From: Pirellulales bacterium
Lineage (GTDB): Bacteria; Planctomycetota; Planctomycetia; Pirellulales; Thermoguttaceae
Direction of reading: 5' to 3'
Assembly (NCBI GenBank): GCA_963845975.1
Contig: CAWJUD010000002.1
Location: 781,646 to 845,645, forward strand
Length of the DNA: 64,000 bases
A program made the translations under genes and the position numbers. The notes under the pieces were generated by a model, which searched no databases, had not been told where the DNA came from, and saw nothing but the letters and a program-made list of their open reading frames with translations. This document shows, piece by piece, positions 33,367-53,748 of the stretch (positions are counted from its first letter, which is position 1; each line of letters begins with the position of its first letter).

Positions 33367-36177
33367 CTAATGTGGCGGCGTAGCATATTTGGAAGGGATG
33401 GGTGCATTCAGGATACTCGACTGAGAGGCGCTGTGAGAATTCAACCAATCTTCAATTTTTATGCTCCACGCCGTCTGATTTTTGGATCGAGCAATGCTCA
33501 AAGCCTTCTGAGCCGCGGCAATAGCTTCTGTAGATTGGTGCGTCTTTGTATAGGCCGACGCCAGATTCACATAGGCTTCGATAAAGTCGGGGTTGAACCG
33601 CAGTGCTCGTATGTAATTATCAATTGCCTCCTGAGGCCGACCCATGTTGACGAGTTCATTTCCCAGGTTATAGTAGGCCTCGGCAAAGTCGGGTTGTAGC
33701 TGAACAGCGCGCTCATAGTGTTTGATCGCCTCAGGTATCTTTCCCAAGGAGCCCAAAGCAACGCCCAAGTTGTTGTGGGCGCGCGGATTATATTGGCATT
33801 TATCAACCGTATCCTGCCAAATCGCAATTTCCGACCGATAATCATAATTTCGCATTACAGTGCCGTACCCCAAGGCTATTACCACTGCCCCCAGCACAAC
33901 CACCGGCGCCACCCAATGCACTACACTTCCACGAAGCCTATCTCTCACTAGATCCGTCAGCAGCATTTCCCACAACTCGTAATTTCCCACAACTACGAAG
34001 ACCACTACCGCTGCCAACGATAGATACACGCGATGATCAAAAGCCGGGTCCAATGTGGGCACAAAAAATGAAGTGGGTGATAAAATAAAAAAGAACCACG
34101 CAAGTAGGAATCCCAGAACTGGGCGTTTCACCAGCGCCCAAGCCATCAGGCCGAGCAGACCGATAGTTAACATTATCGCTGGCAGGACTTCAGCAAGAGT
34201 TTTGGCAGGCGGCAACTGCCCATAATCCAGACACAAGCCCGAGGGCCACAACGAAAGGTTAAGGTAATGGATGATCACGCCCGTTTGTGTCAACAAATAA
34301 CGACTCCAATTCCACGTGAGTTGCTGCGTAGCAAAACCAGTAGTAGGGTTAGGCAAGGCAGTCGGGGTCAATAACCACCTCAGCAACCTCCACTTGGTGA
34401 GCCGCCATACCGGCAGCCCTAACGTTGCCGCCAAGCCGAGATATAATCCCCAACGCCGCTTCCAAGCCTCCCGGAATGATCCAGCCAAAAAAGTACGGTC
34501 GTAAAGTAAAACCATGAACGGAGCCGAAACCATCACTTCCTTCGTGCCCATCCCCAGCAGGCATGCCATTACAGCCCCAAGGTACCAAAGAAACACTCTC
34601 CTTGACGTAGCTCCGCGAAGCACGCAATACAGTGTCAGTAGATAAAACAATCCCATCAATGACTCTGCCCGCTGGACCACATACGTCACCGCTGATGTTT
34701 GCAATGGATGGACCGCCCAAATCAACGCTACTGCAAGTCCGAGAAATAACGCCCTTGAACCAAGCAGATCCCGGAGAATGGGTAAAAGCAACGTCCGCCG
34801 CACGATTCCGAACAACACCAAAGCCGCCATCACATGGATGGCCAAGTTTATCAGGTGATAGCCCCAAACGTTGGTTCCACATAGGGCATAGTTGATCGCT
34901 AAAGACAGGTTAAGTATCGGTCGGCCTGAAACAGTTGGCGCCCATGGCGGCGATAGCGCCCGCCAAAGCGGCCAAAGATGGCGGATACTCGGGTTCTCCA
35001 ATATGGCGTATGTGTCATCCAAGATGAATGGCCCCTCGAAACTATTGTGATAAGCCGCGCATACCGCCACTATAATCAGGCCCGCCCCCAGCAATACCCA
35101 CCGCGAAGATGCCGGCCTAAACGACTCGTCTGTCTCGGGAGAAGCGGTTGCTTGTACCACGGGGACGTCGGCAGTATGCCTTGCTTTCCTCCGAACCAGG
35201 TAGTCTACGGTCCCGGCAAGTACGCCAAGGCTCATAACAATCTGATCGAAAAAAAGCACTACGATCCCACATAGTGCAAAGCGGAATCCCTGCTGCTGAG
35301 CCAGATACCAGAGGAATTTCGCGTTTAGGGCTATCGAGGCTGCAAGAAAAATGCCCGGAAACCAGGAGGAAAGCGAACCCAGGGCACATGCCAGCATAGT
35401 GCCCAATGTTACCATGGCCAGACCTAGTCCTGCGATTTGGGTAAGGCTTGCGTGTGCAAACCGGCCTTTTTTTAGCAGTTTTCCCAAACTGAAACGTTCC
35501 AGGAAAATATTGGCCCAGGTATAAGGGATCAAGAAATCGTTCCGATAGAATGACAGAAGCGAGTATTCCTTTAAATGAGTCGCCTTGAGTTCATTACAGT
35601 AGATAATCGCAGTCCCGGTCGAGCTGAGGCGCAAGCCCAATTCCGTGTCTTCTCCCCTTTGGGTTTCCAAAAACTTTACGAAGGATGACCTTCTAATCGC
35701 TGCGACGGAAGTGAACAGGAAGTCAATCCGATTAGGAAGATTGGAAAATATATAGGACATGTAACAATTCTTGTACCGGGAGAAGTATCCCTTGACCGGG
35801 GCACTGGCGTCCAAGCGACCGTTAATGGCTCCCGCCTCGGGTTTTTGCCGAAACATTTCGGCCACCAATTTCAGTCCATCTTTTGGGATGACAACATCTG
35901 AATCGATGAAGACTAATACATTTCCTTTTGCTTGGAGGGCCCCCACATTCCTGGCCGCGCCCGGCCCGGCAGAATTCGGGAGGTCGATGACCATGGCGCC
36001 ATGATCGAGTGCAATTTGACGCGTCTCATCAGTACTAGTGGCGGCCACTACGATGATTTCCAAAGGTGGCAATGACGACTCTCGGATCGCCTTGAGACAA
36101 CTCCCTATGGTACGTGCGGAGTTGCAAGCGGGTACAATCACGCTGATAGACATCTCACCACAACCAGCAACGGTCAC
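33367..36177 (-). CDS. GT2 glycosyltransferase fused to a polytopic membrane domain and C-terminal TPR repeats
   Basis: ISVIVPACNSARTI...DSD GT-A N-terminus; more than ten TM helices; C-terminal AEAYYNLGN-type TPRs. Confidence 0.7.
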   Translation of the reverse strand: MTVAGCGEMSISVIVPACNSARTIGSCLKAIRESSLPPLEIIVVAATSTDETRQIALDHGAMVIDLPNSAGPGAARNVGALQAKGNVLVFIDSDVVIPKDGLKLVAEMFRQKPEAGAINGRLDASAPVKGYFSRYKNCYMSYIFSNLPNRIDFLFTSVAAIRRSSFVKFLETQRGEDTELGLRLSSTGTAIIYCNELKATHLKEYSLLSFYRNDFLIPYTWANIFLERFSLGKLLKKGRFAHASLTQIAGLGLAMVTLGTMLACALGSLSSWFPGIFLAASIALNAKFLWYLAQQQGFRFALCGIVVLFFDQIVMSLGVLAGTVDYLVRRKARHTADVPVVQATASPETDESFRPASSRWVLLGAGLIIVAVCAAYHNSFEGPFILDDTYAILENPSIRHLWPLWRALSPPWAPTVSGRPILNLSLAINYALCGTNVWGYHLINLAIHVMAALVLFGIVRRTLLLPILRDLLGSRALFLGLAVALIWAVHPLQTSAVTYVVQRAESLMGLFYLLTLYCVLRGATSRRVFLWYLGAVMACLLGMGTKEVMVSAPFMVLLYDRTFLAGSFREAWKRRWGLYLGLAATLGLPVWRLTKWRLLRWLLTPTALPNPTTGFATQQLTWNWSRYLLTQTGVIIHYLNLSLWPSGLCLDYGQLPPAKTLAEVLPAIMLTIGLLGLMAWALVKRPVLGFLLAWFFFILSPTSFFVPTLDPAFDHRVYLSLAAVVVFVVVGNYELWEMLLTDLVRDRLRGSVVHWVAPVVVLGAVVIALGYGTVMRNYDYRSEIAIWQDTVDKCQYNPRAHNNLGVALGSLGKIPEAIKHYERAVQLQPDFAEAYYNLGNELVNMGRPQEAIDNYIRALRFNPDFIEAYVNLASAYTKTHQSTEAIAAAQKALSIARSKNQTAWSIKIEDWLNSHSASQSSILNAPIPSKYATPPH

Positions 36178-38250: not shown

Positions 38251-39405
38251 TTGCCTGCGCGGACCACTATTGACGCGGATTGGTCTCAACGAATTCAAAC
38301 GCTGCTACGGATAGATCTGGATTGGACATTTCTAATCTCGATGGCATACCGGCACAAGCTCATACCGCTCTTGTATCGGCACCTCAGTAGAATAGGCGCC
38401 GGAATTGTTCCTAAGGACATACTTGATCAACTACGAACCTATTTCCAGAAGAACGTTTGCCGCAGTCTTCTTCTCACTCGTGAACTTCTCAGACTACTCA
38501 AGCTCTTTGAAGAGCACAACATTCCCGCCGTTCCTCTTAAAGGACCGGTGCTGGCGGAAACGGTCTACGGCAATGCTTCGTTTCGGCAGTTCGTAGATCT
38601 GGACATCCTCGTCCATAGGAATGATGCCTTGACGGCCAAGAATCTACTAGCTTCACAAGGCTACCTTCCGCTGGACTCCCAGACTGACGCCGAGGCCGCC
38701 GACACTCTTGGATTGGTACCGGAGCATCACTTTTCTTGCATGCGTGACAGCCAGGTTTTCATCGAGCTTCACTGGAGGAGCGATCCGCCCTTGTTTTCCT
38801 TGTCCCTCGAGTCCGAATACTTGTGGGAACGCCTTGTGCCAATACCGTTTGCCGGCACGAAAGTGCTCGGCTTTCCCTCGACGGATCTGCTCTACATGCT
38901 CTGCGAGCACGGGGCCAGGCACTGCTGGCAACAATTGAGCTTAATCTGCGATGTGGCCGAACTCGTTCGTGATCCGCTATGTATAAATTGGAAACAGGTC
39001 TTGGAGCAAGCGAAAAAGACGGGCGGTCAGCGGATACTCTTTCTCGGCCTTTTTATGGCATGGGATCTCCTGGGAGCAGCCCTTCCGGAAAAGGTATTAC
39101 GCATGACACAGACCGACCCTATGGTAAAAGTTATTGCCAGGAAGGTGTACAAAGGATTTCTTCAGGAGAATTACGCCCCCCAGGGCCCTGTGGAAACGCT
39201 GCTTTTTTGGATCAAGGTGAGGGAACGCTTGAGTGATCAAATCCGAATGTGTATCCTTGCATTGGCCCCTGGCATATACGATCGATCCTTTGTGACATTA
39301 CCAAAGTCGTTGTCTTTCCTCTATTACTTGATCCGGCCGATCCGGTTATTTTGGCAGTATGAACTTGGCCCGTTGAGAAGTTACCTTAAGACGTTACTTT
39401 CGTAA
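38251..39405 (+). CDS. Uncharacterised-family nucleotidyltransferase (NTP_transf_5-like), RiPP-cluster associated
   Basis: 384 aa; PLKGPVLAE...FVDLDILVH nucleotidyltransferase motif; convergent with the maturase operon. Confidence 0.6.
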   Translation: MPARTTIDADWSQRIQTLLRIDLDWTFLISMAYRHKLIPLLYRHLSRIGAGIVPKDILDQLRTYFQKNVCRSLLLTRELLRLLKLFEEHNIPAVPLKGPVLAETVYGNASFRQFVDLDILVHRNDALTAKNLLASQGYLPLDSQTDAEAADTLGLVPEHHFSCMRDSQVFIELHWRSDPPLFSLSLESEYLWERLVPIPFAGTKVLGFPSTDLLYMLCEHGARHCWQQLSLICDVAELVRDPLCINWKQVLEQAKKTGGQRILFLGLFMAWDLLGAALPEKVLRMTQTDPMVKVIARKVYKGFLQENYAPQGPVETLLFWIKVRERLSDQIRMCILALAPGIYDRSFVTLPKSLSFLYYLIRPIRLFWQYELGPLRSYLKTLLS

Positions 39406-39505: not shown

Positions 39506-39997
39506 CTAGCGCTCACCGATGTCATGTCTCCATTGCTGCAGCCGCCGTAGCGCCACTCTTCCACTTCGCCATATCCGACCAGCCGGCCGGAGCAGCCATA
39601 AACTCCAAGGCGCACAGCGCATCCATATCAATATGGCAAGACGCCACGCGCCGCAATCGAAGACACGGACGCGCCCTCTGTGGTAGGAAACAATTGCCTT
39701 GCCCAAAACGTCGCGTTGGGTAAACGGTCCCTCGGAATCTCGCTGCGAGTCGCCGCGTAGAAAGAACTCGTCGCCGTCGATTTTTACGACGCGGTGTAAA
39801 ACGTAGCAATCTTCCAGATGACACACAAGGATCATGTCGCCAAACGACGGCCGAGAGCGCATTGATTCAAGTTCCACCACGTCGCCGTCGTAAATGAATG
39901 GCTCCATGCTCCTGCCGGTGACGGTCAGGCGCACGCGCTGGCCGCGCTCCAGTGCAGCGCGAATGACGGGCATCAGTTCGCGGCTGGGGACATTCAT
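39506..39997 (-). CDS. S24/S26 (LexA/signal-peptidase-like) serine peptidase, candidate leader peptidase
   Basis: TVTGRSMEPFIYDGDVV...LHRVV...VLGKAIV; paralogue of 51234-51821; start overlaps the upstream maturase stop. Confidence 0.6.
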   Translation of the reverse strand: MNVPSRELMPVIRAALERGQRVRLTVTGRSMEPFIYDGDVVELESMRSRPSFGDMILVCHLEDCYVLHRVVKIDGDEFFLRGDSQRDSEGPFTQRDVLGKAIVSYHRGRVRVFDCGAWRLAILIWMRCAPWSLWLLRPAGRIWRSGRVALRRLQQWRHDIGER

Positions 39998-42171
39998 AGC
40001 ACCGACCTCACGAGCGAAACCACCTCGGGCTCCGGGCGGCAGCGGAGGCGATAGACCGGCACACGCGCCAGAATCGCGTCGAGGTTTGCCATTGCACGCT
40101 GCATGAGCGCTCGATCCCAGTAAGGCAGAAACGCACGGGCGAGCAGCAACGGCGCAGAGGCGGAGGGGGAGAGCCGGTGGATTTCATTCTCAGGCGCTTG
40201 TTCCAGCAGGATGAGAGCGAAGAGCGGCGCACGATAATTGAGGGCTATGTTGGCGGTGCCGGCCCAAGGCGTGCCGTAGCACTCCGCACCGCTGGCTTTC
40301 GGTCGTACGGCGATCCGGTCGTCGTTCATCGCAATCACGCCGGCGAACTGACTCCACAAGCTCGCTTGTGTGCTCTTGCCCACACCGGAGTGTCCGACAA
40401 AGACTATGCCGCGCCCGTTGTCGTCAATTCCGGAGGCGTGGAAAAACAGGCCGTCCGTCAAAAGTATCTTGGTGCGCAGAATCAGATCACCTGCCCAGAA
40501 GTTAAGCAGACTCATCCAGGTTGGGCCGTCCCGCTGTTCGGTCAGTGTCAGGTCGTCCCACGCGGCGTTGGCCCGCAGCACTCCTTGCACGTTTTCGCTC
40601 TTATAACTGAATGCGGAGTAGTACGCCTGGGCCTCACGATACATCCGCCAGATGGAGCCCGGACTGTAGATCAATTCACCGTATGGGGATGGCGCTCGAG
40701 TGCTCTCTTCCCAGTCAAGCGACAGTCGCGCAATTGGATCCTCCGGCGCACCAACAAAAGAGCCAAACCACTTTTCGATTCCCATATCAGCGGCCGAAAG
40801 TGGACTATGCACCTCGATCAGAATATCGGCGATAGTAATAGGGATGTTATGCTGGCTGCTCATAATAATTCTTTGCGCCCGAGCTATTTGACACAGATAC
40901 GGTACTGGTTCGGTCAGTGTGTTTGTTTCTGTCAGCGACCATCCCGGGCAGCGCTTGCAGTAGACTCGCGCATCGCAGGAAAGACAAACGGATGCGATGC
41001 GCAACGAATCAACATATTCCTTCACTTGTTCCCATGCCACCGCGAAGCCGACCTCCAAGGGCTTGGCAGCAGGTCGCGGCAGGGATAGACAAGCATTTAT
41101 TTCTCCCGCTGGATTGATGGCAAAGTGCGCTTTACCGCATAGGCAGTGGAAATTGTAGTCACCGGCTGTGGCGTATCCCATGAGTGTGACATCGCTCCAT
41201 TCGTCGGCGGAGATACGATCAGTCGATTCAAGTTTGATACAGTCCTGTACAGACAGGCGGCATTTCTCAACCTCGGAAGGGGTGCCGTCGGGCCGCTTAC
41301 CGAGCAGCCAGTTCCCTGAAAAAGGCACACCCCAGTTGTGCGCCATCTGTCGCATCGCTTCCAGTTCGCCCACATTTTGTCGAGTGATAGTGATCTTCAA
41401 TTCTAGAGGCACGCGGCGCTTGATGAGTGATTCGATCCCGGCGCAACAGTGTGTGTAACTGCCGATCACGCCGGTAACTGCCTCGTAGGTGGCGGCTGTC
41501 GCGCCGTAAAGGGTTATAGTAGTGCAGTTGGGCGGAGCTTGGGCAAGGCGCTCTGCTACTGCCTCACTGATGAGCGTGCCATTGGTGCGGACAGCGATCA
41601 GCAACCCCAAGCGGGTGAGCGGCTCAAAGATTTCAAAAAAGTCGGGCCGCAAAAAGACCTCACCTCCAGTGAGGATCAAGAAGAGCATGCCATGACCCAC
41701 TGCTTGGTTGGCCAGAGACAACCATGCTGCCGCCGGCAGTTCCTTTGCCCGTCGCGCTACGTCATCAGCCGGATGCCGTACGGCGCACATTCGGCAAGCG
41801 AGGTTGCAGCGGGTAGTCAGCTCAAAACTGGCGCTGATAGGCTGACGGCGATCACTGGCGCGCCTGAAAAGTTCATCCGTCAGTGGACCATATTGGGTGG
41901 GAAGCGTGCTCATGCCAAAAGACCCATGCGCAAGTTCGTCCACAAAATTCCGAACATCGACGGCTGCATGTTCTACATCCACATCAAACCGCTCTGCCAT
42001 GCTGTTTGCCAGATAGTCTGCGGAACATTCTTCTGCAAGGAGGGACCAGATAAAGCACCCCGTGTTATTCAGAATCACCATGCCGTTGAGATCCATGACC
42101 CGTGATCCCAGAGGCACCAGCAGATTCTCACCGCTTATATTATGCAGCAGAAGATCATCATTGCGTTTCAT
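39994..42171 (-). CDS. Tri-domain fusion: PqqD-like RRE + radical SAM/SPASM peptide maturase + HprK-related kinase domain
   Basis: N-terminal LLVPLGSRVMDLNGMVILNNTGCFIW (PqqD-like); CNLACRMC radical SAM cluster with SPASM cysteines (CLCGKAHFAINPAGEINAC...CLSCDARVYCKRCPGW); C-terminal GIVFVGHSGVGKSTQASLW P-loop resembling the HPr kinase C-domain. Confidence 0.75.
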   Translation of the reverse strand: MKRNDDLLLHNISGENLLVPLGSRVMDLNGMVILNNTGCFIWSLLAEECSADYLANSMAERFDVDVEHAAVDVRNFVDELAHGSFGMSTLPTQYGPLTDELFRRASDRRQPISASFELTTRCNLACRMCAVRHPADDVARRAKELPAAAWLSLANQAVGHGMLFLILTGGEVFLRPDFFEIFEPLTRLGLLIAVRTNGTLISEAVAERLAQAPPNCTTITLYGATAATYEAVTGVIGSYTHCCAGIESLIKRRVPLELKITITRQNVGELEAMRQMAHNWGVPFSGNWLLGKRPDGTPSEVEKCRLSVQDCIKLESTDRISADEWSDVTLMGYATAGDYNFHCLCGKAHFAINPAGEINACLSLPRPAAKPLEVGFAVAWEQVKEYVDSLRIASVCLSCDARVYCKRCPGWSLTETNTLTEPVPYLCQIARAQRIIMSSQHNIPITIADILIEVHSPLSAADMGIEKWFGSFVGAPEDPIARLSLDWEESTRAPSPYGELIYSPGSIWRMYREAQAYYSAFSYKSENVQGVLRANAAWDDLTLTEQRDGPTWMSLLNFWAGDLILRTKILLTDGLFFHASGIDDNGRGIVFVGHSGVGKSTQASLWSQFAGVIAMNDDRIAVRPKASGAECYGTPWAGTANIALNYRAPLFALILLEQAPENEIHRLSPSASAPLLLARAFLPYWDRALMQRAMANLDAILARVPVYRLRCRPEPEVVSLVRSVL

Positions 42172-42483: not shown

Positions 42484-42627
42484 GTGGATGGGGTCAATCA
42501 GGTTGATAACTAGCAAAAAGTCTCTCTTCTATCCTGAGAGGAACAAAGGTTGCCTTGGGCGGCTCATAGGGCTGTTTGGGGCTCGGCTGCTCTTCATTTT
42601 GCTGGATGACTTCTTTTGGATCATCCG
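42484..42627 (-). CDS. 47-aa Pro/Glu-rich peptide sharing an ATGA junction with the upstream PqqD-like gene; candidate precursor
   Basis: MKNPDDPKEVIQQNEEQPSPKQPYEPPKATFVPLRIEERLFASYQPD; ATG overlaps the upstream stop (acATGAaaa); SD-like aaggga 10 nt upstream; below the 60-aa ORF-track cutoff. Confidence 0.4.
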
Positions 42628-42920
42628 GGTTTTTCATGTTTGTTTCCCTTTCAGTTGAGTTATGTGTAGACTCAGTTCGCTCGCATTGGCGAGGAGGTTG
42701 GTGAAAGCGCGGTCGACTTCCGTTACGAAGTCATCCACAGTGTGCTCCCGTACATCCTCTTCCACACGGCTATGCCCATAGGGTTGATTCCTACTACGGA
42801 GTCGCACCTGTAAGGATTAAACAAGACAGCACAATCGTCGAACTCTTCCCTCAGCACCACCAACGGATTAGCCAACGGTTTTTCAGACTTACTTGTTTGC
42901 ATAACAGAATCCTGATTCAA
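42624..42920 (-). CDS. PqqD-family peptide chaperone (RRE), with a 1-nt deletion frameshift relative to its degenerate paralogue at about 52.5 kb
   Basis: NPLVVLREEFDDCAVLFNPYRCDSVVGINPMGIAVW PqqD pattern; C-terminal part continues in the -1 frame (VDDFVTEVDRAFTNLLANASEL) up to the TGA that overlaps the next ATG. Confidence 0.55.
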
Positions 42921-43112: not shown

Positions 43113-43412
43113 TTAGGGGCTGATTATGTGTACCGGAATCTGCAGTTCCCATGTACAGGTACGAGTATGTGTACTTCTATGCCGACAACACTCGCCATGA
43201 CCGGCTCGCTTGTCCACCCACTCTGGGCTCCTCTTGTAATGTTTTGCCTTGGTCAATTCGTCTGCCTTGGCCTCCAACAACGTATTGAGCATCTCTTCCA
43301 CCGAGTCCCACACCAAATTGCCCAGGTAGTTCGTTACCTCCTCTTCTTCCTCATTTACCTTATACAATCCCGAAAACTTCTTACATCTGGCATTTTCTGT
43401 CACACTGCTCAT
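43113..43412 (-). CDS. Hypothetical acidic protein with Cys/His/Thr-rich C-terminus (GHGECCRHRSTHTRTCTW)
   Basis: ORF only; possible second precursor type. Confidence 0.3.
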   Translation of the reverse strand: MSSVTENARCKKFSGLYKVNEEEEEVTNYLGNLVWDSVEEMLNTLLEAKADELTKAKHYKRSPEWVDKRAGHGECCRHRSTHTRTCTWELQIPVHIISP

Positions 43413-43774: not shown

Positions 43775-45589
43775 ATGTCCATCAAAGAAGGTTATCGCAC
43801 AGTTCTGGGCGCATTGCACATTGGTCCCGCCCTCCGTTTAGTCTGGCAGGGATGTCCCGGTTGGACCGTGGCAAGCGTCCTGCTCCTGATCGTACAAGGG
43901 ACGCTGCCGCTTGTGGCGCTTTACGTTCTCAAATTGATCGTTGATGCGGTGGCGGGCGGCCTCCAAGGGGGTGCAGGCGAACACGGATTCGGGCAAGCAG
44001 CCTTCTTGATCGGCATCGCGGGCTTTGTCGCTATTGTCGCGGCTGCCTGCCAGTCTCTGGCGATGCTAGTAGACGAAGCCCAGACGCAAGCCGTTTCCGA
44101 CCACCTGCATCACATTCTCCACGCCAAGTCCGTGGAAATCGATCTCGAGTACTACGAGGATCCGCAGTTTCACGACACATTGCATCGAACCCAGTTCGAG
44201 GCATTTTTCCGGGCCTCGCACATCTTCAGAACGCTATTGCAGTTGGGACAAAACGGGATTTCGCTGGTGGCGATGGTCGTTCTAATCATTTTGTGTCACT
44301 GGCTGGTTGCCGCACTTTTGTTCTTGGCAGCCCTCCCCCTTGCCTTCGTTTATCTGCGGTATGCCAACAAGCTCTATCAATGGCGCCGTGATCGCACTTC
44401 CACCGAACGCCAGGCGACCTACCTACACTGGCTGCTAACCAGGAGCGAACCCGCTAAAGAACTTCGACTTTTTTCCCTGGGTAATCTGTTCATGGAACGG
44501 TTCCGGGAGCTGCGCAAACAGCTCCGCGAAGAAAAAATCCATATTGTTATGGCACGTTCGGTGACGGAGTTGGTCACCCAAATCGGCGCTGCCCTGGGTA
44601 TTATCGGGGCCTATGCGTTTGTGACGTATCGTGCCTTTCAAGGTTTTATGACACTTGGCGATCTGGTGATGTATTTTCAGGCATGCCAGCGGGCACAAGG
44701 TTTTTTCCAACAGTTGCTGAGCGGTTTCAGCAGTCTCTACGAGGACAATCTGTTTCTCGCGGACTTATGCGACTTCTTTGCCCTGAAGCGCAAGGTTCTT
44801 GAGCCTGGTCACCCGAAACCCATGCCCAAGCAAATGGAGACTGGGATCGTATTTGAGGGGGTCGGCTTCCGCTATCCAAACAGCACGAAAGTGGTGCTCA
44901 ACGACATCAATCTGACAATCCGTCCTGGAGAAATTGTGGCGCTGGTCGGCGAGAACGGGGCGGGTAAAACAACGTTGATCAAGCTTCTCTGCCGATTGTA
45001 TGATCCGACTAGCGGCAGTATTCGGCTCGATGGAATCGATCTGCGCCAGTTCCGGACTATTGATCTACGGCGCGACATCAGCGTCGTATTTCAGGACTAC
45101 ATGCAGTACTACACCACCGCGCGGGAAAACATCTGGTTTGGCAATACCGATTTGCCATGCGATCAGGAACGAATTGCAGTTGCGGCGCGGCAGGCCGGCG
45201 CCGACCGCGTGATCGCCAAGTTGCCTCGCGGCTATGACACGATCCTGGGAAAATTGTTCGACACAGGAGAAGAATTAAGCACCGGCGAATGGCAGAAGCT
45301 CGCCCTTGCGAGGGCGTTTCTCCGCGACGCCCAGATCGTCGTGCTGGATGAGCCGACAAGTGCCATGGGAGCCAGGGCCGAATTGCAGGTCTTCAATAAG
45401 TTCCGCCGGCTGATCGAAGGCCGCACGGCAATCCTGATCAGTCATCGGTTTTCGACCGTCCGGATTGCAGACCGGATCTTTGTGCTCGACGAGGGGAGAA
45501 TCATCGAATCTGGCAACCATGAAGAATTAATAGCCCGGGGGGGAACCTATGCTCGACTCTTTGAAATCCAAGCACAATCTTACAGATGA
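43775..45589 (+). CDS. ABC transporter, fused permease/ATP-binding exporter
   Basis: Six N-terminal TM helices; Walker A GENGAGKTTL, signature LSTGEWQKLALARAF, Walker B IVVLDEPTSAMG. Confidence 0.85.
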   Translation: MSIKEGYRTVLGALHIGPALRLVWQGCPGWTVASVLLLIVQGTLPLVALYVLKLIVDAVAGGLQGGAGEHGFGQAAFLIGIAGFVAIVAAACQSLAMLVDEAQTQAVSDHLHHILHAKSVEIDLEYYEDPQFHDTLHRTQFEAFFRASHIFRTLLQLGQNGISLVAMVVLIILCHWLVAALLFLAALPLAFVYLRYANKLYQWRRDRTSTERQATYLHWLLTRSEPAKELRLFSLGNLFMERFRELRKQLREEKIHIVMARSVTELVTQIGAALGIIGAYAFVTYRAFQGFMTLGDLVMYFQACQRAQGFFQQLLSGFSSLYEDNLFLADLCDFFALKRKVLEPGHPKPMPKQMETGIVFEGVGFRYPNSTKVVLNDINLTIRPGEIVALVGENGAGKTTLIKLLCRLYDPTSGSIRLDGIDLRQFRTIDLRRDISVVFQDYMQYYTTARENIWFGNTDLPCDQERIAVAARQAGADRVIAKLPRGYDTILGKLFDTGEELSTGEWQKLALARAFLRDAQIVVLDEPTSAMGARAELQVFNKFRRLIEGRTAILISHRFSTVRIADRIFVLDEGRIIESGNHEELIARGGTYARLFEIQAQSYR

Positions 45590-46219: not shown

Positions 46220-47198
46220 TCAAGCATTAATTATGGTCTTCATGAGAACATCGACGGTCTGGTCCAAAGGGCCGGGATGTAATTCGTAGCACTCGGCCTT
46301 GCGCAGGGCCGCCCCTAAGGTCGACATGGATCGATAGGCTCGGGCTGGATCGGCGATCATGTTATTGAGCGAGAGCAGCATTGCGGCGGTGATGGCCCGG
46401 GCGCGAGGCATCGGTTCTAATCTGGGCGCGTCTTCGAATCCGCCGAGGAAAAAAAAGTACCGCAGATTACATGGCGAGCCTATTTCGACATCATCAGCAT
46501 GGAGAATGTGAACTCCCAATGAATCATCATAGGCGTTTCGGATTTTGTGTAGCATCTTGTCGTCTATGCAGCCCTCGATCAACGGCAAACTTTCCGGACG
46601 AACCGAGATCGACTTGGGCAAAGGGACCATCCGGTACAACTCCTTGTGGAACACAGTGACATCGTCGGAGAAATATCGAAAGCCCTGGCCCAGTAGTCCC
46701 AGCGTCAGCGTTGTTTTGCCCCGCATTGTTGGCCCCGCCAGCGCCACGCCCTGCCCATTCCATGATAGTCCGGCAGCGTGCAGTAGTTCGTGAGACTGCA
46801 CTTTTGAGAAGCAGAATGGCGAATACTTGCGTTCGGCATAGATTGTAGAGCGATTCGATGGCAAGGATATAGATATTTGCGAGGCCTTCGGAAAAGATGG
46901 CAAGATACGGTTCGCCATCACCGCTGATAAGCATGAAGATGGGAACACTGTTGGCTCGGTTCTCCGTCTTCAGACTTCCGTAAATGGCATCGAGACATCG
47001 GATGACAACACGGTCGTTGGTCTTGACACGGACGAACACGTCCAACAACCGATAGGTTCGTTCCAACTCCTCCTGCCACTTCATGTTCTGGAGTTCCTGC
47101 ACCACCCCAGATACTATCTCCCTATCCGATAGCCTTTTGCATAGCGACATGCCGTCTAGACGCAGCATCTCAGAGACCAACTGTGGTGATTGCATCAT
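46220..47198 (-). CDS. HprK-related serine kinase (stand-alone); one frameshift near 46920
   Basis: GVALAGPTMRGKTTLTLGLLGQGFRYFSDD matches the HPr kinase C-domain P-loop (GxxGxGKS/T...ADD); ATGATG start at 47198 overlaps the last 30 nt of the B12-rSAM gene. Confidence 0.65.
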
Positions 47199-48552
47199 TG
47201 TTCTCCAACAGAAGATTCCACTTCGCCAAGAAATTCGAGTCTTCGAAACGCCAGTAGGGGGCAAAAACCTTGGGATGATCTTTGATCAATTGCAGCATCT
47301 CCGCGCTTCCATTGTTCAGGGCCATCATCGATCCGTCGCCGCGGCATACGAAGCGGACCTTTGCCGCCGCCTCGTCGAAGAGAATGCTGTCTTTGTACTC
47401 CGCGTACAGCGGCGAATTCGGCATCGGCATCAGGTGGTTGAACGCGAGTATCATCGAGCACTTGCCCTCCGCCGCCTGGGAAATGTAAAAGACAAGGAAC
47501 ATGGTCTCCTTGAATTCGATTAACGTTTCGAAGGGAAATCCCCACATCAGGAAAAGTTTGATGGTTTTGAAATGCGACATCGATTGAACGATGGTGTGGG
47601 TGGCCTCCTTGATGCTGAATCCCTTGTGAAGTATCTTCAGGACCGAATCAGACCCGGACTCCAGCCCGTAGCCGATTGCAGTGCAACCCGTTGCAGTCAT
47701 GCACCTTAGCAGCTCCTCGTCCATTAGATCCACGCGTCCCAAGCAGCTCCACTCGCTGCCGGGGGCCGCCCGTTGCAGTCCTTCGCAGAATTGTTGCACT
47801 CGCTGTTTTGATAGCACGAATGTATCGTCATGGATACTGAACTCTTTCTTCCCAAACTCGTGGTACAACAAATGAACTTCCCGGAGGACGTTATCCATGT
47901 CTCGATAACGAGCCCGGCGCCCCCAGTATGTGGATATATCGCAGAACGTACAATTGTGCGGGCAACCCCGGGTTGTTAGAATGCTCGCCCTTTCATATTT
48001 TTCGAGATCCAGAAGTTGATAGGCGGGAAAGGGCCGATGGTCGAGGTCGGAGATCAATTCCCGCGCCGGCGCGGTCCACGCGGAACCATCTTCCTTTCGC
48101 ACTATCACCCCCTTGACGCGACCGCATTCTCCCGGCGCGGACTCCAGGTAATGCATCAGTTCAACAATCGTGTCGTCAGCCTCTCCGCGAACAACCACGT
48201 CGATCCAGGGAAAAGATTCGATGATCGCCTCCGCGACGCCGGACGGTCCCGCCCCGCCGAGCACGAAAACCTTGTGCGGATCGAGCTGCTTCACCTTTTT
48301 CGTAGCGAGGATGACCACCGGCAGCATGTCGTACATGCACCCGATCCCGACTACGTCCGCACAACCGGAGAGAAACGAGACAAACGTATCGACGTCAAAG
48401 GGATTCTCGTATGGGTAGGTCTGGTAGTCCTTGAAGTCCACCTTATAACCGCTTTGTACAAGCGAGGTCGCTATGTGCAAGGGCCCCAAAGGAATGAAGT
48501 GTTTTTTCGGATCAATACGGTCATACGCGGCAACGATTGATATATCGCTCAT
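47170..48552 (-). CDS. B12-binding-domain radical SAM enzyme
   Basis: N-terminal cobalamin-binding Rossmann region followed by TTRGCPHNCTFCD CxxxCxxC. Confidence 0.8.
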   Translation of the reverse strand: MSDISIVAAYDRIDPKKHFIPLGPLHIATSLVQSGYKVDFKDYQTYPYENPFDVDTFVSFLSGCADVVGIGCMYDMLPVVILATKKVKQLDPHKVFVLGGAGPSGVAEAIIESFPWIDVVVRGEADDTIVELMHYLESAPGECGRVKGVIVRKEDGSAWTAPARELISDLDHRPFPAYQLLDLEKYERASILTTRGCPHNCTFCDISTYWGRRARYRDMDNVLREVHLLYHEFGKKEFSIHDDTFVLSKQRVQQFCEGLQRAAPGSEWSCLGRVDLMDEELLRCMTATGCTAIGYGLESGSDSVLKILHKGFSIKEATHTIVQSMSHFKTIKLFLMWGFPFETLIEFKETMFLVFYISQAAEGKCSMILAFNHLMPMPNSPLYAEYKDSILFDEAAAKVRFVCRGDGSMMALNNGSAEMLQLIKDHPKVFAPYWRFEDSNFLAKWNLLLENNDAITTVGL

Positions 48553-48572
48553 AGTTGCACTTGGGATAAATT

Positions 48573-48857
48573 CTAGGAATCGCCTGCGCTGCAACGCCCG
48601 ATCAGTTGCTTGGCCTCTAGCTGCCGGATCAGATCTTCAACGTCCGTTGAAATCGCAACCGCGTCCCCCTGATAGGACGAACAGAGCCCGTTCACGATTT
48701 CGGCGACTGTCCTTTTCCCGTCCAGAAGTCTCCATATACTTGCCGCGATTCGATTAAGCACGGATACTTTGCGGCCCTGGGAATCATACAAAATGACCTC
48801 GTCCTCAAGGTCCTGGCAAGCCACATTAGCATTGTGTTGGTAAATGCCATCGAGCAT
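48573..48857 (-). CDS. PqqD-family peptide chaperone (RRE)
   Basis: VILYDSQGRKVSVLNRIAASIWRLLDGKRTVAEIV...DVEDLIRQLEAKQLI. Confidence 0.7.
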   Translation of the reverse strand: MLDGIYQHNANVACQDLEDEVILYDSQGRKVSVLNRIAASIWRLLDGKRTVAEIVNGLCSSYQGDAVAISTDVEDLIRQLEAKQLIGRCSAGDS

Positions 48858-48921: not shown

Positions 48922-49980
48922 TCAGTATAAAAAAGGTACGGCATGTTCCCGAAATCCCCGGGATTTCCGCGAACGCGCAACGATCTCTTCCCGAAGGTGA
49001 TTGATCATCACCGTGGCCGCACATGCAAGCTCTCGACGCCTGGTTTCCGATCCAAGGCGATCGCACAGAGATTGCAAAACCTCCGGGCGAGAGAGCATGG
49101 CCATGCACAGTTCGCATTTAGTGACGCAATTGGTCGGTTTCTCCAGGATCACGCCGCTTCCCTCGAGTTCTTGTAACAAGCCGGCAGGGCCGCCGAGTCG
49201 AAGAATGTTCAGCAGAGGCGACCTGTCTGCCTTGTGCAATATCTCCACTAAGGAAGAACGCTTGGCGTTTCCCAGGATCAAAGGGCTGTCCGGGGTAAAA
49301 GCCAGATAAGGCCCGCAACAAGCGACCACCGTGCCGTCGGGGAGCACGTTTGGCACGAAGGAAACGAAGCAGCCGGAATTCGGGGCATGTGTAGACGTTA
49401 TCATCTCGGATCGCGGAATGGACTTGGCGCGGCCGAATGGAACCACCGGCTGATCGCCGAGGGGAACGCGCTCCTCGGATAAGACGCTGTGGATCTGTTC
49501 CGCCACCGGATCGTCGCGAAGCACCGAAAGATTGACTATAACGTGAATGTCGTTCTTCTTGCAGGCCCTCACGGCGTTCAGAACATTTTCCATCGGCACA
49601 AACTGCACATGAAATTGATCGGTGCTGATGGCAATCATTTTGACGCCACGTTGCTTCAGCATGGCCGTGGTATCTATAGCTTCGCCGAGAGTCCGCGCCC
49701 AATAGGTGTCGGTCTGAACGACCGGTCGCAGGCCGCAATCTCGCGACATTTCCACCAGGTGCAGTACGTCGTCGGGAAACAGCATGGGTTCGCCGCCGGT
49801 GATCCATAACACGCGAAACCCTGCCTTTGCAGCCTCCTCCACGGTCTTTTCTGCCAGAGGCATTGGCATGACTTCAGAACGTTCCGGACCACATTCGAAG
49901 ACGCAATGTCCACATCGAGCATTGCACTTAGACGTATATACCAAACAAAGAATCGCAGGTAATCTTTCTGCAGTCTTCAC
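48922..49980 (-). CDS. Radical SAM/SPASM-domain peptide maturase
   Basis: YTSKCNARCGHC CxxxCxxC; C-terminal SPASM cysteines (CCGPY...CVTKCELCMAM); GTG start. Confidence 0.8.
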   Translation of the reverse strand: MKTAERLPAILCLVYTSKCNARCGHCVFECGPERSEVMPMPLAEKTVEEAAKAGFRVLWITGGEPMLFPDDVLHLVEMSRDCGLRPVVQTDTYWARTLGEAIDTTAMLKQRGVKMIAISTDQFHVQFVPMENVLNAVRACKKNDIHVIVNLSVLRDDPVAEQIHSVLSEERVPLGDQPVVPFGRAKSIPRSEMITSTHAPNSGCFVSFVPNVLPDGTVVACCGPYLAFTPDSPLILGNAKRSSLVEILHKADRSPLLNILRLGGPAGLLQELEGSGVILEKPTNCVTKCELCMAMLSRPEVLQSLCDRLGSETRRRELACAATVMINHLREEIVARSRKSRGFREHAVPFLY

Positions 49981-50218: not shown

Positions 50219-50374
50219 CTAGCTGGTGTAAGTAATTGGTCCAGGGAGGGTGAATATTTGATTTTCAGGGTCAAATTTCGCCGCCACCTTTACCTTCCCC
50301 AGGACTTCATTCTCATCGTACTCCGTGATTTGAGGCTTTTCCCATATCTGCATGTCTATCTTTTCCATATTCAT
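50219..50374 (-). CDS. Precursor peptide A (51 aa)
   Basis: MNMEKIDMQIWEKPQITEYDENEVLGKVKVAAKFDPENQIFTLPGPITYTS; leader shared with copies B and C, divergent core, ITYTS tail; the 87-aa track ORF is an over-extension. Confidence 0.6.
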   Translation of the reverse strand: MNMEKIDMQIWEKPQITEYDENEVLGKVKVAAKFDPENQIFTLPGPITYTS

Positions 50375-50388
50375 AAACCCATACCTTT

Positions 50389-50535
50389 CTACTTCACAAT
50401 CTGTGCCGTCATAAGCACTGGCATGACCTCCGAACGCTCCGGAACACATTCCCAAATGCAATGTCCACATCGAGCATTGCACTTAGACGTGTATACCAAA
50501 CAAAGAAGCGCTGGTAATCTTTCTACAGTCCTCAC
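50389..50535 (-). pseudogene. Duplicated 5' fragment (48 codons then stop) of the radical SAM/SPASM gene
   Basis: VRTVERLPALLCLVYTSKCNARCGHCIWEC... is about 85% nt-identical to 49840-49980, including the upstream region. Confidence 0.6.
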
Positions 50536-50827
50536 AAGTAATTTACTTTCCCGGCGATGTCTTAGTCATAAACCAAAAATCGCCGAATATATAGTAATGC
50601 TCAATCCACCTCTTCACCAAGTACCAACAACATAGTGCATACAAACCCACCACTAAGTGGAGGCTTCATATGCACCATTGGATTGCATGCATCCACCGCA
50701 CAAGGCAGGCTCAATTGTATCTTTCACTACATACTACCCACTTATTGGCAGCGCATTGACATAACTTTATCGATCTGTCGTAAAGCGGCTACTTTTTCCG
50801 GGCGAAGTTTGGGATAAAGCGTAGGCA

Positions 50828-50974
50828 CTAGCTAGTATAATTAATTGCAAAGGAAAGTGTGTATAAATTTTCAGCATCAAATTTCGCCGCCACCCTTACC
50901 TTCCCCAGGACTTCATTCTCATCGTATTCCGTGATCTGTGGCTTTTCCCAAATCTACATGTCGGTCATGTTCAT
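50828..50974 (-). pseudogene. Precursor peptide B, interrupted by in-frame amber (TAG) at codon 7
   Basis: MNMTDM*IWEKPQITEYDENEVLGKVRVAAKFDAENLYTLSFAINYTS; CAG to TAG relative to A and C. Confidence 0.5.
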
Positions 50975-51087
50975 AAATCATCTAAACCTTTCTTAAAGCG
51001 GCTATTGACAGCATATCGACTAAACTTTATCGATCTGTCGTAAAGCGGCTACTTTTTCCGGGCGCAGTTTCGGATAAAGCGTAGGCA

Positions 51088-51237
51088 CTAGCTAGTATAA
51101 GTAATTGAGCCGGCAACTGTCCAAGTTTGACCTTCAGGGTCAAATTGCGCCGCCACCTTTACCTTCCCCAGGACTTCATTCTCATCGTACTCCGTGATCT
51201 GGGGCTTTTCCCAAATCTGCATGTCGGTCGTGTTCAT
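51088..51237 (-). CDS. Precursor peptide C (49 aa)
   Basis: MNTTDMQIWEKPQITEYDENEVLGKVKVAAQFDPEGQTWTVAGSITYTS; ATG overlaps the TGA of the upstream peptidase gene (ATGA). Confidence 0.6.
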   Translation of the reverse strand: MNTTDMQIWEKPQITEYDENEVLGKVKVAAQFDPEGQTWTVAGSITYTS

Positions 51238-51821
51238 AAATCACCTAAACCTTTCTTAAAGTGCCGGAAGGCAGAAACGAAAGTCAGAACCTTTAAACAA
51301 AATTGAAGCACGCCAATGGATACCACACGTAAGCATCGAAATATCGTTCTCGTGATGAGGTTGTGATTGTTAGGCCAGATCCATTCCTTGACGCTCCTTG
51401 CCAGCCGGTAAAAATACCACATTACATATCCATATAGTCCTAAAAACCGATTCACTATTGTCCAGTGCAAGGTCTCGTAATGATGCCGCGATGCGGTATT
51501 CTGCACAACGATCACTTTTCCTAGCACTGCCCCTATATCGAGTTTTCTATACACAAAGGAATTGTCGCCCTTCTCCAGAAGACGATCTCCTTGCCGCCCG
51601 ACAAATCGATGGACGACCAGATGTCCATGTTCCTCGAATACAAGTATGTCTCCGATCGTCAACTTATCGGCTTGTAACGATCTTACGATCAGATTGTCGC
51701 CGGGACGAATAATAGGCGACATGCTTGTACCCATCGATTCGAATGTTGCCTCACCATGGTGGCGAAGGCGCATCTGCGCCACAAGTACTGCCAAGTCTTG
51801 TTCCTTACGATCTCCCGCCAT
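51234..51821 (-). CDS. S24/S26-like serine peptidase, paralogue of 39506-39997; candidate leader peptidase
   Basis: ESMGTSMSPIIRPGDNLIV...GDILVF...HLVVHRFV...VLGKVIVV; stop overlaps precursor C start. Confidence 0.6.
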   Translation of the reverse strand: MAGDRKEQDLAVLVAQMRLRHHGEATFESMGTSMSPIIRPGDNLIVRSLQADKLTIGDILVFEEHGHLVVHRFVGRQGDRLLEKGDNSFVYRKLDIGAVLGKVIVVQNTASRHHYETLHWTIVNRFLGLYGYVMWYFYRLARSVKEWIWPNNHNLITRTIFRCLRVVSIGVLQFCLKVLTFVSAFRHFKKGLGDL

Positions 51822-53661: not shown

Positions 53662-53748
53662 GGATGGGTGGCCGAGTGGTCTAAGGCGGCAGTCTTGAAA
53701 ACTGCTGTGGGCGTGAGTCCACCGGGGGTTCGAATCCCTCCCCATCCG
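53662..53748 (+). tRNA. tRNA-Ser (anticodon UGA)
   Basis: Acceptor GGATGGG/CCCATCC, anticodon stem GCAGT/ACTGC with loop CTTGAAA (U33-UGA-A37), long variable arm, T arm GGGGG-TTCGAAT-CCCTC, discriminator G. Confidence 0.85.

Follow-up and report, generated by a model that had tools for sequence, protein, structure and literature searches.

This locus raises the question of whether a single reading frame of 725 aa, in which a PqqD-type RiPP recognition element (RRE), a radical SAM (rSAM)/SPASM maturase and a kinase-like ScmC domain follow one another, is one polypeptide, and whether the three activities would act on one peptide. The window, meaning the whole 64,000-nucleotide stretch of a Pirellulales contig that was analysed (CAWJUD010000002.1, positions 781,646 to 845,645), contains the features listed in Table 1. 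On balance, we favour a reading in which the frame represents three consecutive genes of a widespread RiPP-type operon with the mechanism proposed below, joined between rSAM and ScmC by an error or a recent indel.

Table 1. Features of the locus and their coordinates in the window.
Feature	Coordinates	Strand	Evidence or remarks
GT2-TPR protein (polysaccharide genes beside the locus)	33367-36177		
NTP_transf_5 nucleotidyltransferase-like protein, recurrent cassette partner	38251..39405	plus	PF14907, 211 bits
Signal-peptidase-I-like (S24/S26) putative leader peptidase	39506..39997	minus	PF00717; start overlaps ScmC stop (ATGA)
725-aa ORF, PqqD + rSAM/SPASM + ScmC	39994..42171	minus	ORF listing and translation
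ScmC domain or gene, aa 437-725, PEPCK/HprK-fold P-loop	39997..40863	minus	His578, Lys599, Asp617, Asp618
rSAM-ScmC junction, GGGCGCAAAGAATTATTATG	40861..40880	minus	fused or separate genes, depending on base 40875; ScmC normally starts at Met437
Radical SAM core and SPASM domain, aa 87-436	40864..41913	minus	PF04055 and Cys motifs
PqqD-type RiPP recognition element, aa 1-86	41914..42171	minus	Pfam PF05402, AF2 topology
Precursor-peptide gene, 47 aa, leader YEPPKATFVPL..EERL	42494..42637	minus	orthologous small ORFs in relatives
Second, stand-alone PqqD-like gene upstream of precursor, frameshifted	42634..42920	minus	two-frame reading
MsbA-like ABC exporter, divergent	43775..45589	plus	PF00005 and ABC_membrane; TIGR02203 MsbA, E 2e-89

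Domain architecture of the 725-aa frame

An earlier note had described one ORF with three domains and no frameshift. In the sequence as given, the frame is indeed uninterrupted on the minus strand, and HMM searches placed its first two domains, PqqD at aa 18-81 (48.1 bits, cut-off 23.4) and Radical_SAM at aa 117-271 (52.6 bits, cut-off 29.5), both above cut-off. A plus-strand reading of 39994-42171 was rejected, as its translation contained many stops. The full-length AF2 model had a pLDDT of 88 and a pTM of 0.78, and for its N-terminal two thirds SuiB, with RRE, rSAM and SPASM, ranked first among the PDB matches (E 1.5e-13).

The RRE was modelled as a winged helix of three strands and three helices (E7-12, E15-20, E32-34, H36-46, H51-62, H66-82). 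The rSAM cluster motif CX3CX2C corresponds to C122/C126/C129 (CNLACRMC, aa 122-129), and this part gave sub-threshold NCBIfam matches to AhbD, MftC, ScmE/ScmF and PqqE. The seven-Cys SPASM pattern is complete (C345-X10-G-X4-C361; C396-X2-C399-X5-C405-X2-C408; C427), the last spacing, C405-C408, being X2 versus X3 in the motif CX9-15GX4C...CX2CX5CX3C...C. Despite a null result with the Pfam SPASM HMM (PF13186; no Pfam family at aa 304-442 even at E ≤ 10), the motif is present and the region folds like SuiB and PqqE. The join between PqqD and rSAM at Met87 recurs in the loci L001, L002/L009, L003 and L011 and in the proteins P0003-P0016, and it is a genuine fusion conserved across its sub-family.

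The note had expected an HprK-like C-terminal domain and named the lack of any match to HprK-like or P-loop kinase folds as refuting, a condition that did not arise. The predicted structure of the last 289 aa (pLDDT 93.6) matched PEPCK and HprK/P only, and on this model the domain is an HprK/PEPCK-like P-loop fold with its catalytic residues in place. The P-loop GHSGVGKST is confirmed at aa 593-601, and the phmmer alignment to 1jb1 pairs fHasg / GhSGvGKS / nDDR with mHgvl / GdSGvGKS / aDDR, so that the Walker A Lys599 and His578, Asp617 and Asp618 are in HprK register. This is the His-Lys-Asp-Asp set of HprK-family RiPP kinases; in ScmC-domain numbering, H142, K163 and D182 were invariant and D181 nearly invariant among 50 sequences. 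HprK HMMs scored below cut-off (PF07475, 14.9 versus 33.3 bits; TIGR00679, 14 versus 240 bits), and a PDB search with the ScmC sequence profile alone gave P-loop-level matches only, with HprK at E 0.12. The ScmC equivalog model TIGR04249 reached 23 bits (E 4.4e-5) against a cut-off of 125; by its profile score, the window protein is a member of a family related to TIGR04249 and not the equivalog. About 500 stand-alone ScmC homologues were found at 60-77% identity, and PF27840 (ScmC) was precomputed on all 120 homologues among the matches listed (56-74% identity, covering 97-100% of the domain). A literature search on ScmC, SynChlorMet, PF27840 and TIGR04249 found no published function.

A single base at the rSAM-ScmC junction

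Whether ScmC belongs to the same chain hangs on one base. An independent contig, L001, shares 99.89% identity with the window over 4376 columns, and the sole indel is base 40875, which lies inside a GCGC motif and is absent from L001. There the rSAM protein ends ...ARAKELL*, its gene overlaps ScmC by ATGA, and the genes are separate. Three forms of the junction can be distinguished: GGGCGCAAAG in the window (fused), GGGCGAAAG in the L001 arrangement, and the canonical GGGCGCGAAAG, which would give separate genes. The statement that the frame contains no frameshift therefore holds for the given string only. Relative to L001 the window has an additional base, not a missing one; relative to the canonical form it is one base short. 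Adding one G at the junction gives an rSAM end of ...IARARKNYYEQPA*, which is the family-consensus tail, and a 17-nt overlap with the ScmC start as in relatives. The repaired rSAM protein is 441 aa long, with closest relatives at 434-464 aa, and the consensus tail YLCxIAxAR[KQ]xxY is present in ~25 homologues.

All four difference events between the window and L001 fall in GCGC motifs, of which the 4.4-kb overlap has 30 sites (~2.7% of positions). Locus L010 is likewise 1 nt short at the homologous GCGCG; it was rejected as a second example of fusion, as the canonical tail returns on repair. Elsewhere in the window two conserved genes, UvrD and thioredoxin-NHL, are split, with GCGC in both shift intervals. 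When ORF pairs that an indel could join were sought across the whole window, the result was too noisy for statistics on an association with GCGC. Such GCGC-linked discrepancies can make an open frame appear or vanish in an assembly of this type.

Because L001 lacks base 40875, the differences all lie in GCGC, one added G restores both tail and overlap, and other genes in the window are broken, we consider it likely that the rSAM-ScmC join reflects either a consensus error made at a (possibly methylated) GCGC motif or a very recent indel. In the sequence, a very recent real 1-nt deletion looks the same as an assembly error. A true three-part fusion is probably not what the 725-aa ORF represents.

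The foremost alternative is that the window is correct and that, through the recent loss of 1 nt, two translationally coupled genes came to encode one real 80-kDa RRE-rSAM/SPASM-ScmC chain. The ORF is intact with every motif present, natural rSAM-ScmC fusions with equally short linkers are viable, and the AF2 junction is an ordered helix-to-strand connection. It is also the window, not L001, that has the shared GCGC wherever the two disagree, and L001 may thus be the one that is derived or carries errors. Against these points, such a chain would have its conserved AR[KQ]xxY tail destroyed, although the neighbouring frame still encodes the canonical tail and its stop, two ~99.9%-identical assemblies disagree exactly at 40875, L010 shows the same shortfall, and conserved genes elsewhere in the window are frameshifted. 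A protein spanning aa 1-725 was found neither among 5.8 billion clusters nor among 1.84 billion representatives. We regard a real chain as rather unlikely, and unless reads confirm the triple fusion it should not serve as Rosetta-stone evidence. Against an artefact, besides the extra base relative to L001, stands the parsimony at the three substitution sites, by which the GCGC-bearing window looks more correct than L001 (Arg104 being the commonest residue among homologues).

The conserved cassette and its precursor peptides

More than 40 loci have in common the order precursor, PqqD, rSAM, ScmC and signal-peptidase-like protease, optionally with an NTP transferase and an ABC exporter. They comprise L004-L008, L061-L067 and ~35 more distant metagenome loci, and the hosts of the cassette or of ScmC include Planctomycetota, Acidobacteriota, WOR-3, Nitrospirota, Syntrophaceae and others. 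The cassette is common among soil, peat and sediment bacteria. The closest relative among the genome contigs searched was a Pirellulales MAG (64%).

Fusions occur in these relatives. Genuine in-frame rSAM-ScmC fusions with short linkers comprise a family of ~650-aa proteins (634-679 aa) on at least 24 contigs and, in addition, P0002/L068, and fusions of this type are already present in sequence databases as PF04055+PF27840; the 670-aa Dehalococcoidia relatives have a second rSAM gene. PqqD-rSAM fusions are common. The earlier note had argued from the window fusion that all three activities act on the same peptide. That idea is supported, mainly by gene order, by the rSAM-ScmC and PqqD-rSAM fusions and by the precursor family described below; the window fusion itself is weak evidence for joint action, since one base, in a GCGC context prone to error, decides it and the conserved rSAM tail is left broken.

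The putative leader peptidase matched PF00717 at 28.7 bits, with the archaeal-type signal peptidase I TIGR02228 as best NCBIfam model, and carries the motifs SMEP (Ser30), HRV (His68) and GDS (Asp83). Its gene comes after ScmC in most related loci. The NTP_transf_5 family also adjoins the cassette in L004, L061-L063, L064 and L067, and the ABC exporter does so in L004. The stand-alone PqqD-like gene has an identical interruption in L001 and intact counterparts in L015, L016 and L006.

Small ORFs orthologous to the window precursor lie upstream of the maturase genes in 15 or more loci. A search with the precursor family gave 383 matches; a C-terminal Ser was present in 108 of the 120 best-scoring representatives, and among 111 parsed cores two Cys occurred in 104 and C-x-K in 90. 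A YxxP leader, the two-Cys core and the C-terminal Ser, kept in 90% of members, define the family sharply. The terminal Ser tracks ScmC among close loci (10 of 12 precursors with ScmC versus none of three loci without it). An NCBIfam scan of the precursor peptides returned no family, and a crude scan upstream of PqqD in the distant metagenome loci (25-38%) recognised no precursors.

The window precursor, identical to P0438, is an outlier within this family. Its core is degenerate, with neither Cys nor C-terminal Ser, and ends ...SYQPD; as both features are missing, the locus may be inactive, or its enzymes may process a peptide whose gene lies elsewhere. Reading the precursor TGA as selenocysteine (an alignment can place it opposite a Cys codon in the L010 peptide) was rejected. 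No hairpin follows it, the MFE of -8.4 kcal/mol being weaker than that of shuffles (z +1.8), and the window contains no tRNA-Sec.

A further alternative is that the locus is a decaying remnant, a cluster without product in which the fused frame is a neutral lesion. The degenerate precursor would fit this, as would the upstream PqqD-like gene, which is frameshifted in both assemblies and adjoined by a transposase fragment, and the coding substitutions between window and L001, all of which alter an amino acid. However, the maturase, ScmC, peptidase, NTP-transferase and exporter are full length with catalytic motifs intact, more precursor genes are possible elsewhere in the genome, and the apparent lesions may be sequencing errors themselves. 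We hold decay of the locus to be doubtful.

Proposed pathway and relation to known systems

In the proposed pathway, encoded in the order precursor, PqqD-type RRE, rSAM/SPASM maturase, ScmC and SpI-like leader peptidase with NTP_transf_5 and the MsbA-like exporter alongside, the RRE would bind the leader YxxP motif (YEPPKA) and the rSAM/SPASM enzyme would cross-link the two-Cys core (L-x-C-x-K...C). ScmC would then use ATP to form phospho-Ser, most probably at the near-invariant C-terminal Ser, an acceptor that we assign from conservation only. The signal-peptidase-like protease would remove the leader, the NTP-transferase homologue would decorate the phosphate, and the ABC pump would export the product.

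Four groups of known systems bear on this scheme. The HprK-family enzymes PadeK, ThcoK and PsmK phosphorylate the precursor C-terminal Ser and have a common His-Lys-Asp-Asp motif, and the NTP-transferase homologue PsmN modifies the phospho-Ser (PMC9266682, PMC6993621). The tailoring of paeninodin and pseudomycoidin lasso peptides resembles the cassette in its HprK-superfamily enzyme with His-Lys-Asp-Asp (for ScmC, as judged by motif), at family level in precursors with a conserved C-terminal Ser, which the window precursor lacks, in the NTP-transferase homologue and in RRE-dependent leader recognition. It differs in that the cassette has no lasso cyclase and no B2 protease, the cross-link presumably being made by rSAM, and in that the similarity of ScmC to HprK models is marginal.

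Linear polyphosphorylated peptides (LPPs; Popov et al. 2026) are restricted to Bacillota according to the authors, and their kinase LppK phosphorylates Ser3 of the core, not the terminal Ser (PMC13381572). [quoted passage not shown] In contrast to LPP clusters, where phosphorylation is the primary modification and there is no other core maturase, rSAM/SPASM is a core, constant member of the cassette. Further differences of the cassette are short precursors whose cores have two Cys, a C-terminal position of the conserved Ser, ScmC (PF27840) in place of an LppK-type kinase, and fusion of the RRE to rSAM, the RRE of LPP clusters being discrete; the hosts are those named above.

The SynChlorMet cassette (ScmC TIGR04249, ScmD TIGR04248, ScmE/F TIGR04250/04251) also brings together a PqqD homologue, PqqE-like rSAM/SPASM and ScmC. 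The window proteins are far below its equivalog cut-offs (84-86 versus 400 bits for ScmE/F, in addition to the ScmC score), and there is one rSAM gene versus two (ScmE and ScmF). Beyond the SynChlorMet set, the window cassette includes an SpI-like peptidase, an NTP_transf_5 protein and precursors of a recognisable family. SuiB, and PqqE with PqqD, share the order of N-terminal RRE, radical SAM core and SPASM at ~15-20% identity, but neither has or partners with a PEPCK/HprK-fold domain.

A precursor family with a terminal Ser and two Cys points to the cassette being an rSAM-containing relative of phosphorylated LPP and paeninodin-type peptides. Its accessory enzymes also occur in the phosphopeptide pathways of LPPs and paeninodin (described in 2016-2026), and the cassette adds an rSAM maturase to them. 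That ScmC is instead no peptide Ser kinase, phosphorylating carboxylates or small molecules as PEPCK does, or acting as a phosphorylase or an ATP-dependent rSAM scaffold, would suit the low HprK HMM scores and the tight rSAM fusion of the 650-aa family, but is unlikely given that the His-Lys-Asp-Asp needed in lasso-peptide kinases is kept (PMC9266682), the partner proteins (SpI-like peptidase, NTP transferase, MsbA-like pump, RRE) are shared with the phosphorylated LPP pathway (PMC13381572), and the precursor C-terminal Ser is 90% conserved and absent from loci without ScmC.

As a tentative extension, ScmC cassettes could form a large, phylum-spanning RiPP class with a Cys-x-Lys...Cys rSAM cross-link, a C-terminal phospho-Ser and decoration of the phosphate by the NTP transferase. 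If so, they would stand beside LPPs and phosphorylated lasso peptides as relatives with an rSAM cross-link, and the natural rSAM-kinase fusions, possibly with an RRE-rSAM-kinase triple fusion, would show both chemistries on one RRE-held substrate. ScmC would gain a concrete, testable candidate function, and peptide phosphorylation by HprK-fold enzymes would reach well beyond Bacillota.

The window also has a second sub-cluster, for which the same functions had been claimed as separate proteins. That comparison is loose, since the families differ and the span cited for HprK, 46220-47198, is 979 nt, not a multiple of three, and so not one ORF. The part in the other frame, which contains the ATG at 47198 and would be N-terminal, gave no match to the HprK_rel_A profile. 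The HprK-like ORF is 46220-46948 (242 aa, GTG start) and is HprK_rel_A-like, not ScmC; the rSAM protein of this sub-cluster is YydG-like, and an additional B12-rSAM is present.

The open frame and its domains

The 725-aa ORF described in the earlier note was present without interruption at 39994-42171 on the minus strand (stops abound when the plus strand is translated), but its join between the radical SAM (rSAM) part and the C-terminal ScmC part hangs on base 40875. The PqqD, rSAM/SPASM and HprK-like domains assigned to it were borne out by Pfam scores, Cys motifs and the C-terminal fold. PqqD covers aa 18-81 (48.1 bits versus a Pfam cut-off of 23.4) and Radical_SAM aa 117-271 (52.6 bits versus 29.5), with CNLACRMC at aa 122-129. 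The full SPASM Cys pattern was observed (C345-X10-G-X4-C361, C396/C399/C405/C408, C427), and the Pfam SPASM HMM gave no match to the frame. Matches of the C-terminal 289 residues to HMMs were all sub-threshold (HprK_rel_B, E 1e-8; ScmC TIGR04249, E 4e-5; Hpr_kinase_C, E 0.02). The PqqD-rSAM join at Met87 is a genuine fusion, since it recurs in several contigs (L001, L002/L009, L003 and L011) and in ~12 database proteins (434-464 aa) of varied origin.

Searching with aa 437-725 brought up ~500 stand-alone relatives of ~290-300 aa, 60-77% identical across the whole domain; all those listed carried Pfam PF27840, and 'ScmC' appeared in the context listings. The AlphaFold2 model of this domain (50 sequences; pLDDT 93.6, pTM 0.90) was compared with the PDB using Foldseek and matched only PEP carboxykinases (PEPCK; best E 2.5e-7) and HPr kinase/phosphorylases (HprK/P; E 1e-4 to 2e-3), the first match outside these having an E of 0.2. 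In the phmmer alignment to L. casei HprK/P, FHASG...GHSGVGKST...NDDR pairs with MHGVL...GDSGVGKSE...ADDR. Domain residues His142, Lys163 and Asp182 (His578, Lys599 and Asp618 of the 725-aa frame) were invariant and Asp181 (Asp617) nearly so in 50 sequences, some only 22-26% identical. The region therefore does match HprK-like folds, as had been claimed, and ScmC is, by its modelled fold, an HprK/PEPCK-type P-loop protein that retains its catalytic residues.

The rSAM-ScmC junction

The nearest database protein, P0001, is 99% identical to the frame and has only 436 aa. In its contig, L001, the rSAM gene ends in ...ARAKELL* and overlaps the ScmC start by ATGA. Over 4376 columns (window 45073-40698) this independent, 99.9%-identical contig differs from the window by four substitutions and one indel, the latter being base 40875, missing from L001 and a few codons ahead of Met437. 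Every difference event sits within a GCGC of the window (GGCGCC, GGCGCG, AGCGCC, GGGCGCAAAG); the overlap holds 30 such sites, ~2.7% of positions, and 26 of the 30 are the same in L001. This clustering is not chance. It points either to miscalled bases tied to the motif, methylation being one candidate cause, or to mutation tied to it.

The rSAM C-terminal tails of ~25 homologues have YLCxIAxAR[KQ]xxY... in common, and in the closest cassettes with a stand-alone ScmC they end in ...RY(V/G)(Q/H)PA*, with a 17-nt overlap with the ScmC ATG. The window tail as given, YLCQIARAQRIIMSS..., departs from this consensus, and adding one G at the junction (GGGCGCGAAAG) gives YLCQIARARKNYYEQPA*, an rSAM protein of 441 aa with canonical tail, stop position and overlap. 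The Pirellulales MAG locus L010 (CAWGAJ010000001.1, 7280-7340) was rejected as a second fused case: its homologous junction is exactly one base short at GGGCGCG, and repair brings back the canonical tail (...ARARKERYAQPA*). Several more frameshifts were seen in L010 besides this shortfall. At least two further conserved genes of the window are broken, both with GCGC in the shift interval, and are likely assembly indel errors.

Taken together, the L001 indel, the GCGC pattern, the tail repair, L010 and the broken genes indicate that the rSAM-ScmC join is probably an error in the consensus, or else an indel of very recent date, and not an established fusion. That it is a real fusion appears rather unlikely. 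In favour of one, the window looks the better sequence of the two at the three sites where L001 has substitutions, in-frame rSAM-ScmC fusions elsewhere are viable, and AF2 gives an ordered junction (pLDDT 88, pTM 0.78); against it, searches of 5.8 billion clusters and 1.84 billion representatives turned up no protein spanning aa 1-725. The natural rSAM-ScmC fusions form a family of 634-679 aa (PF04055+PF27840), one member of which, P0072, is present in at least 24 contigs; in the fusion P0002/L068 (~60% identity) the boundary has no start codon.

Features of the window, with coordinates on the whole stretch
Feature	Position	Strand	Remarks
UvrD-type helicase, split	6113-7591 + 7551-8216		overlapping ORFs in different frames; GCGC in shift interval
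Thioredoxin-NHL repeat protein, split	20450-21679 + 21457-22122		overlapping ORFs in different frames; GCGC in shift interval
GT2-TPR fusion protein	33367-36177	minus
NTP_transf_5	38251-39405		211 bits
S24-like peptidase	39506-39997		ATG overlaps ScmC stop
Window/L001 differences	40875, 41418-41419, 41862, 44385		L001 reads GTGC, GTGC, ATGC + 1-nt deletion
Precursor-peptide ORF, 47 aa	42494-42637	minus	MKNPDDPKEVIQQNEEQPSPKQPYEPPKATFVPLRIEERLFASYQPD; just upstream of maturase genes
Stand-alone PqqD-like gene	42634-42920	minus	upstream of precursor; frameshifted in window and L001
Transposase fragment	43113-43412		beyond PqqD-like gene
MsbA-like exporter	43775-45589
Second sub-cluster: HprK_rel_A-like protein, 242 aa	46220-46948	minus	GTG start
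Second sub-cluster: B12-binding rSAM	47170-48594
Second sub-cluster: PqqD	48573-48857
Second sub-cluster: YydG-like rSAM/SPASM	48922-49980
Three tandem precursor genes	50219-51237	minus	...DMQIWEKPQITEYDENEVLGKVKVAA.FD.E...YTS; WxxP leader (WEKPQI), C-terminal Ser
Duplicated 5' fragment of YydG-like rSAM gene	50389-50535		among tandem precursors
Second sub-cluster: a further SpI-like peptidase	51234-51821

Cassette, precursor and proposed pathway

Neighbourhoods of stand-alone ScmC showed a constant order of small ORF, PqqD (88 aa), Radical_SAM (~360 aa), ScmC (~293 aa) and S24-like (154-181 aa), often with genes for NTP_transf_5 and for an ABC exporter alongside, and ~35 remoter metagenome loci (25-38% identity) retain PqqD-rSAM-ScmC-S24. 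The window cassette has the same gene set. Its S24-like peptidase had archaeal-type signal peptidase I as top NCBIfam match and carries SMEP (Ser30), HRV (His68) and GDS (Asp83). The conserved synteny, together with the independent rSAM-ScmC fusions, supports cooperation of the RRE, rSAM and ScmC activities. The earlier note had argued from the fusion that they act on one peptide; the functional linkage holds on these other grounds, whereas the triple fusion itself is doubtful and probably not a real protein. Polysaccharide-type genes adjoin the cassette, in the window the GT2-TPR fusion protein and in L004 glycosyltransferases, Wzy_C and an epimerase; clusters for linear polyphosphorylated peptides (LPP) have likewise been described inside capsular polysaccharide loci (PMC13381572).

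The 47-aa precursor ORF has orthologues at the same place in at least 15 loci, and a profile search found 383 family members. Among the best 120 of these, 108 of the 120 end in Ser, exactly two Cys occur in 104 of the 111 parsed cores, and 90 have C-x-K close to the core start. At close scored loci, a small and phylogenetically linked sample, the terminal Ser was present in 10/12 precursors adjoining ScmC versus 0/3 without ScmC (L002, L003, L013). The window's own precursor is an outlier, with no Cys and a final Asp, as against two Cys and terminal Ser in ~90% of the family. An alignment to the peptide of L010, the closest relative, can place its TGA opposite a Cys codon. No SECIS-like hairpin was seen 3' of this TGA (z +1.8), and the window lacks a tRNA-Sec, so a selenocysteine reading was rejected and the TGA is probably a premature stop. 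A second PqqD gene is intact in L015, L016 and L006 at the place of the frameshifted PqqD-like gene. The first-cluster locus may be idle. L010 has two intact precursors and a third (P0433) elsewhere on the contig, whose N-terminus resembles the window peptide.

The HprK-family proteins PadeK, ThcoK and PsmK of lasso-peptide clusters phosphorylate the precursor's C-terminal Ser (PMC9266682, PMC6993621). In the LPP system, phosphorylation stimulates leader cleavage, and the peptidase is presented with its cleavage site by the RRE (PMC13381572). The window cassette has the LPP components (SpI-like peptidase, RRE, HprK-like protein, NTP transferase and MsbA-like exporter) plus an rSAM/SPASM enzyme. 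On this basis we propose that the RRE would bind YEPPKA, the rSAM enzyme would cross-link the two-Cys core, ScmC would phosphorylate the terminal Ser with ATP, the SpI-like protease would take off the leader, the NTP transferase would decorate the phosphate, and the ABC pump would export the product. The main alternative, a non-kinase role for ScmC, draws on PEPCKs being the best whole-domain matches and on the sub-threshold HprK HMM scores; beside the aligned HprK/P motifs, we consider it improbable. A literature search found no published work on ScmC or the SynChlorMet cassette. The underlying system appears to be an uncharacterised rSAM-containing variant of phosphorylated-RiPP pathways.

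Second sub-cluster and surroundings

The second sub-cluster, said to encode the same functions as separate proteins, proved analogous but not equivalent, having a YydG-like rSAM, a B12-binding rSAM and an HprK_rel_A-like protein. The likeness of the latter to ScmC is marginal (pairwise E 8e-4 across 26 residues). The HprK gene placed at 46220-47198 could not be upheld: these 979 nt span two frames, and the ATG at 47198 is off-frame from the 242-aa ORF. The family profile gave no match to the segment upstream of this ORF (region 46220-47264, minus), and the gene may be either frameshifted or just shorter. The middle tandem precursor copy (end 50828) has an in-frame stop. Leader motifs differ between the neighbouring clusters, YxxP in the single precursor and WxxP in the tandem ones, the same Tyr/Trp difference that is reported to separate co-resident RRE-dependent pathways (PMC13381572). 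Further along, a tyrosine-integrase gene overlaps a tRNA-Ser, and genes for a DUF3987 protein and a resolvase come next (53662-55051, 56311-58398, 63387-63959); this region looks like an integrated mobile element flanking the RiPP clusters.
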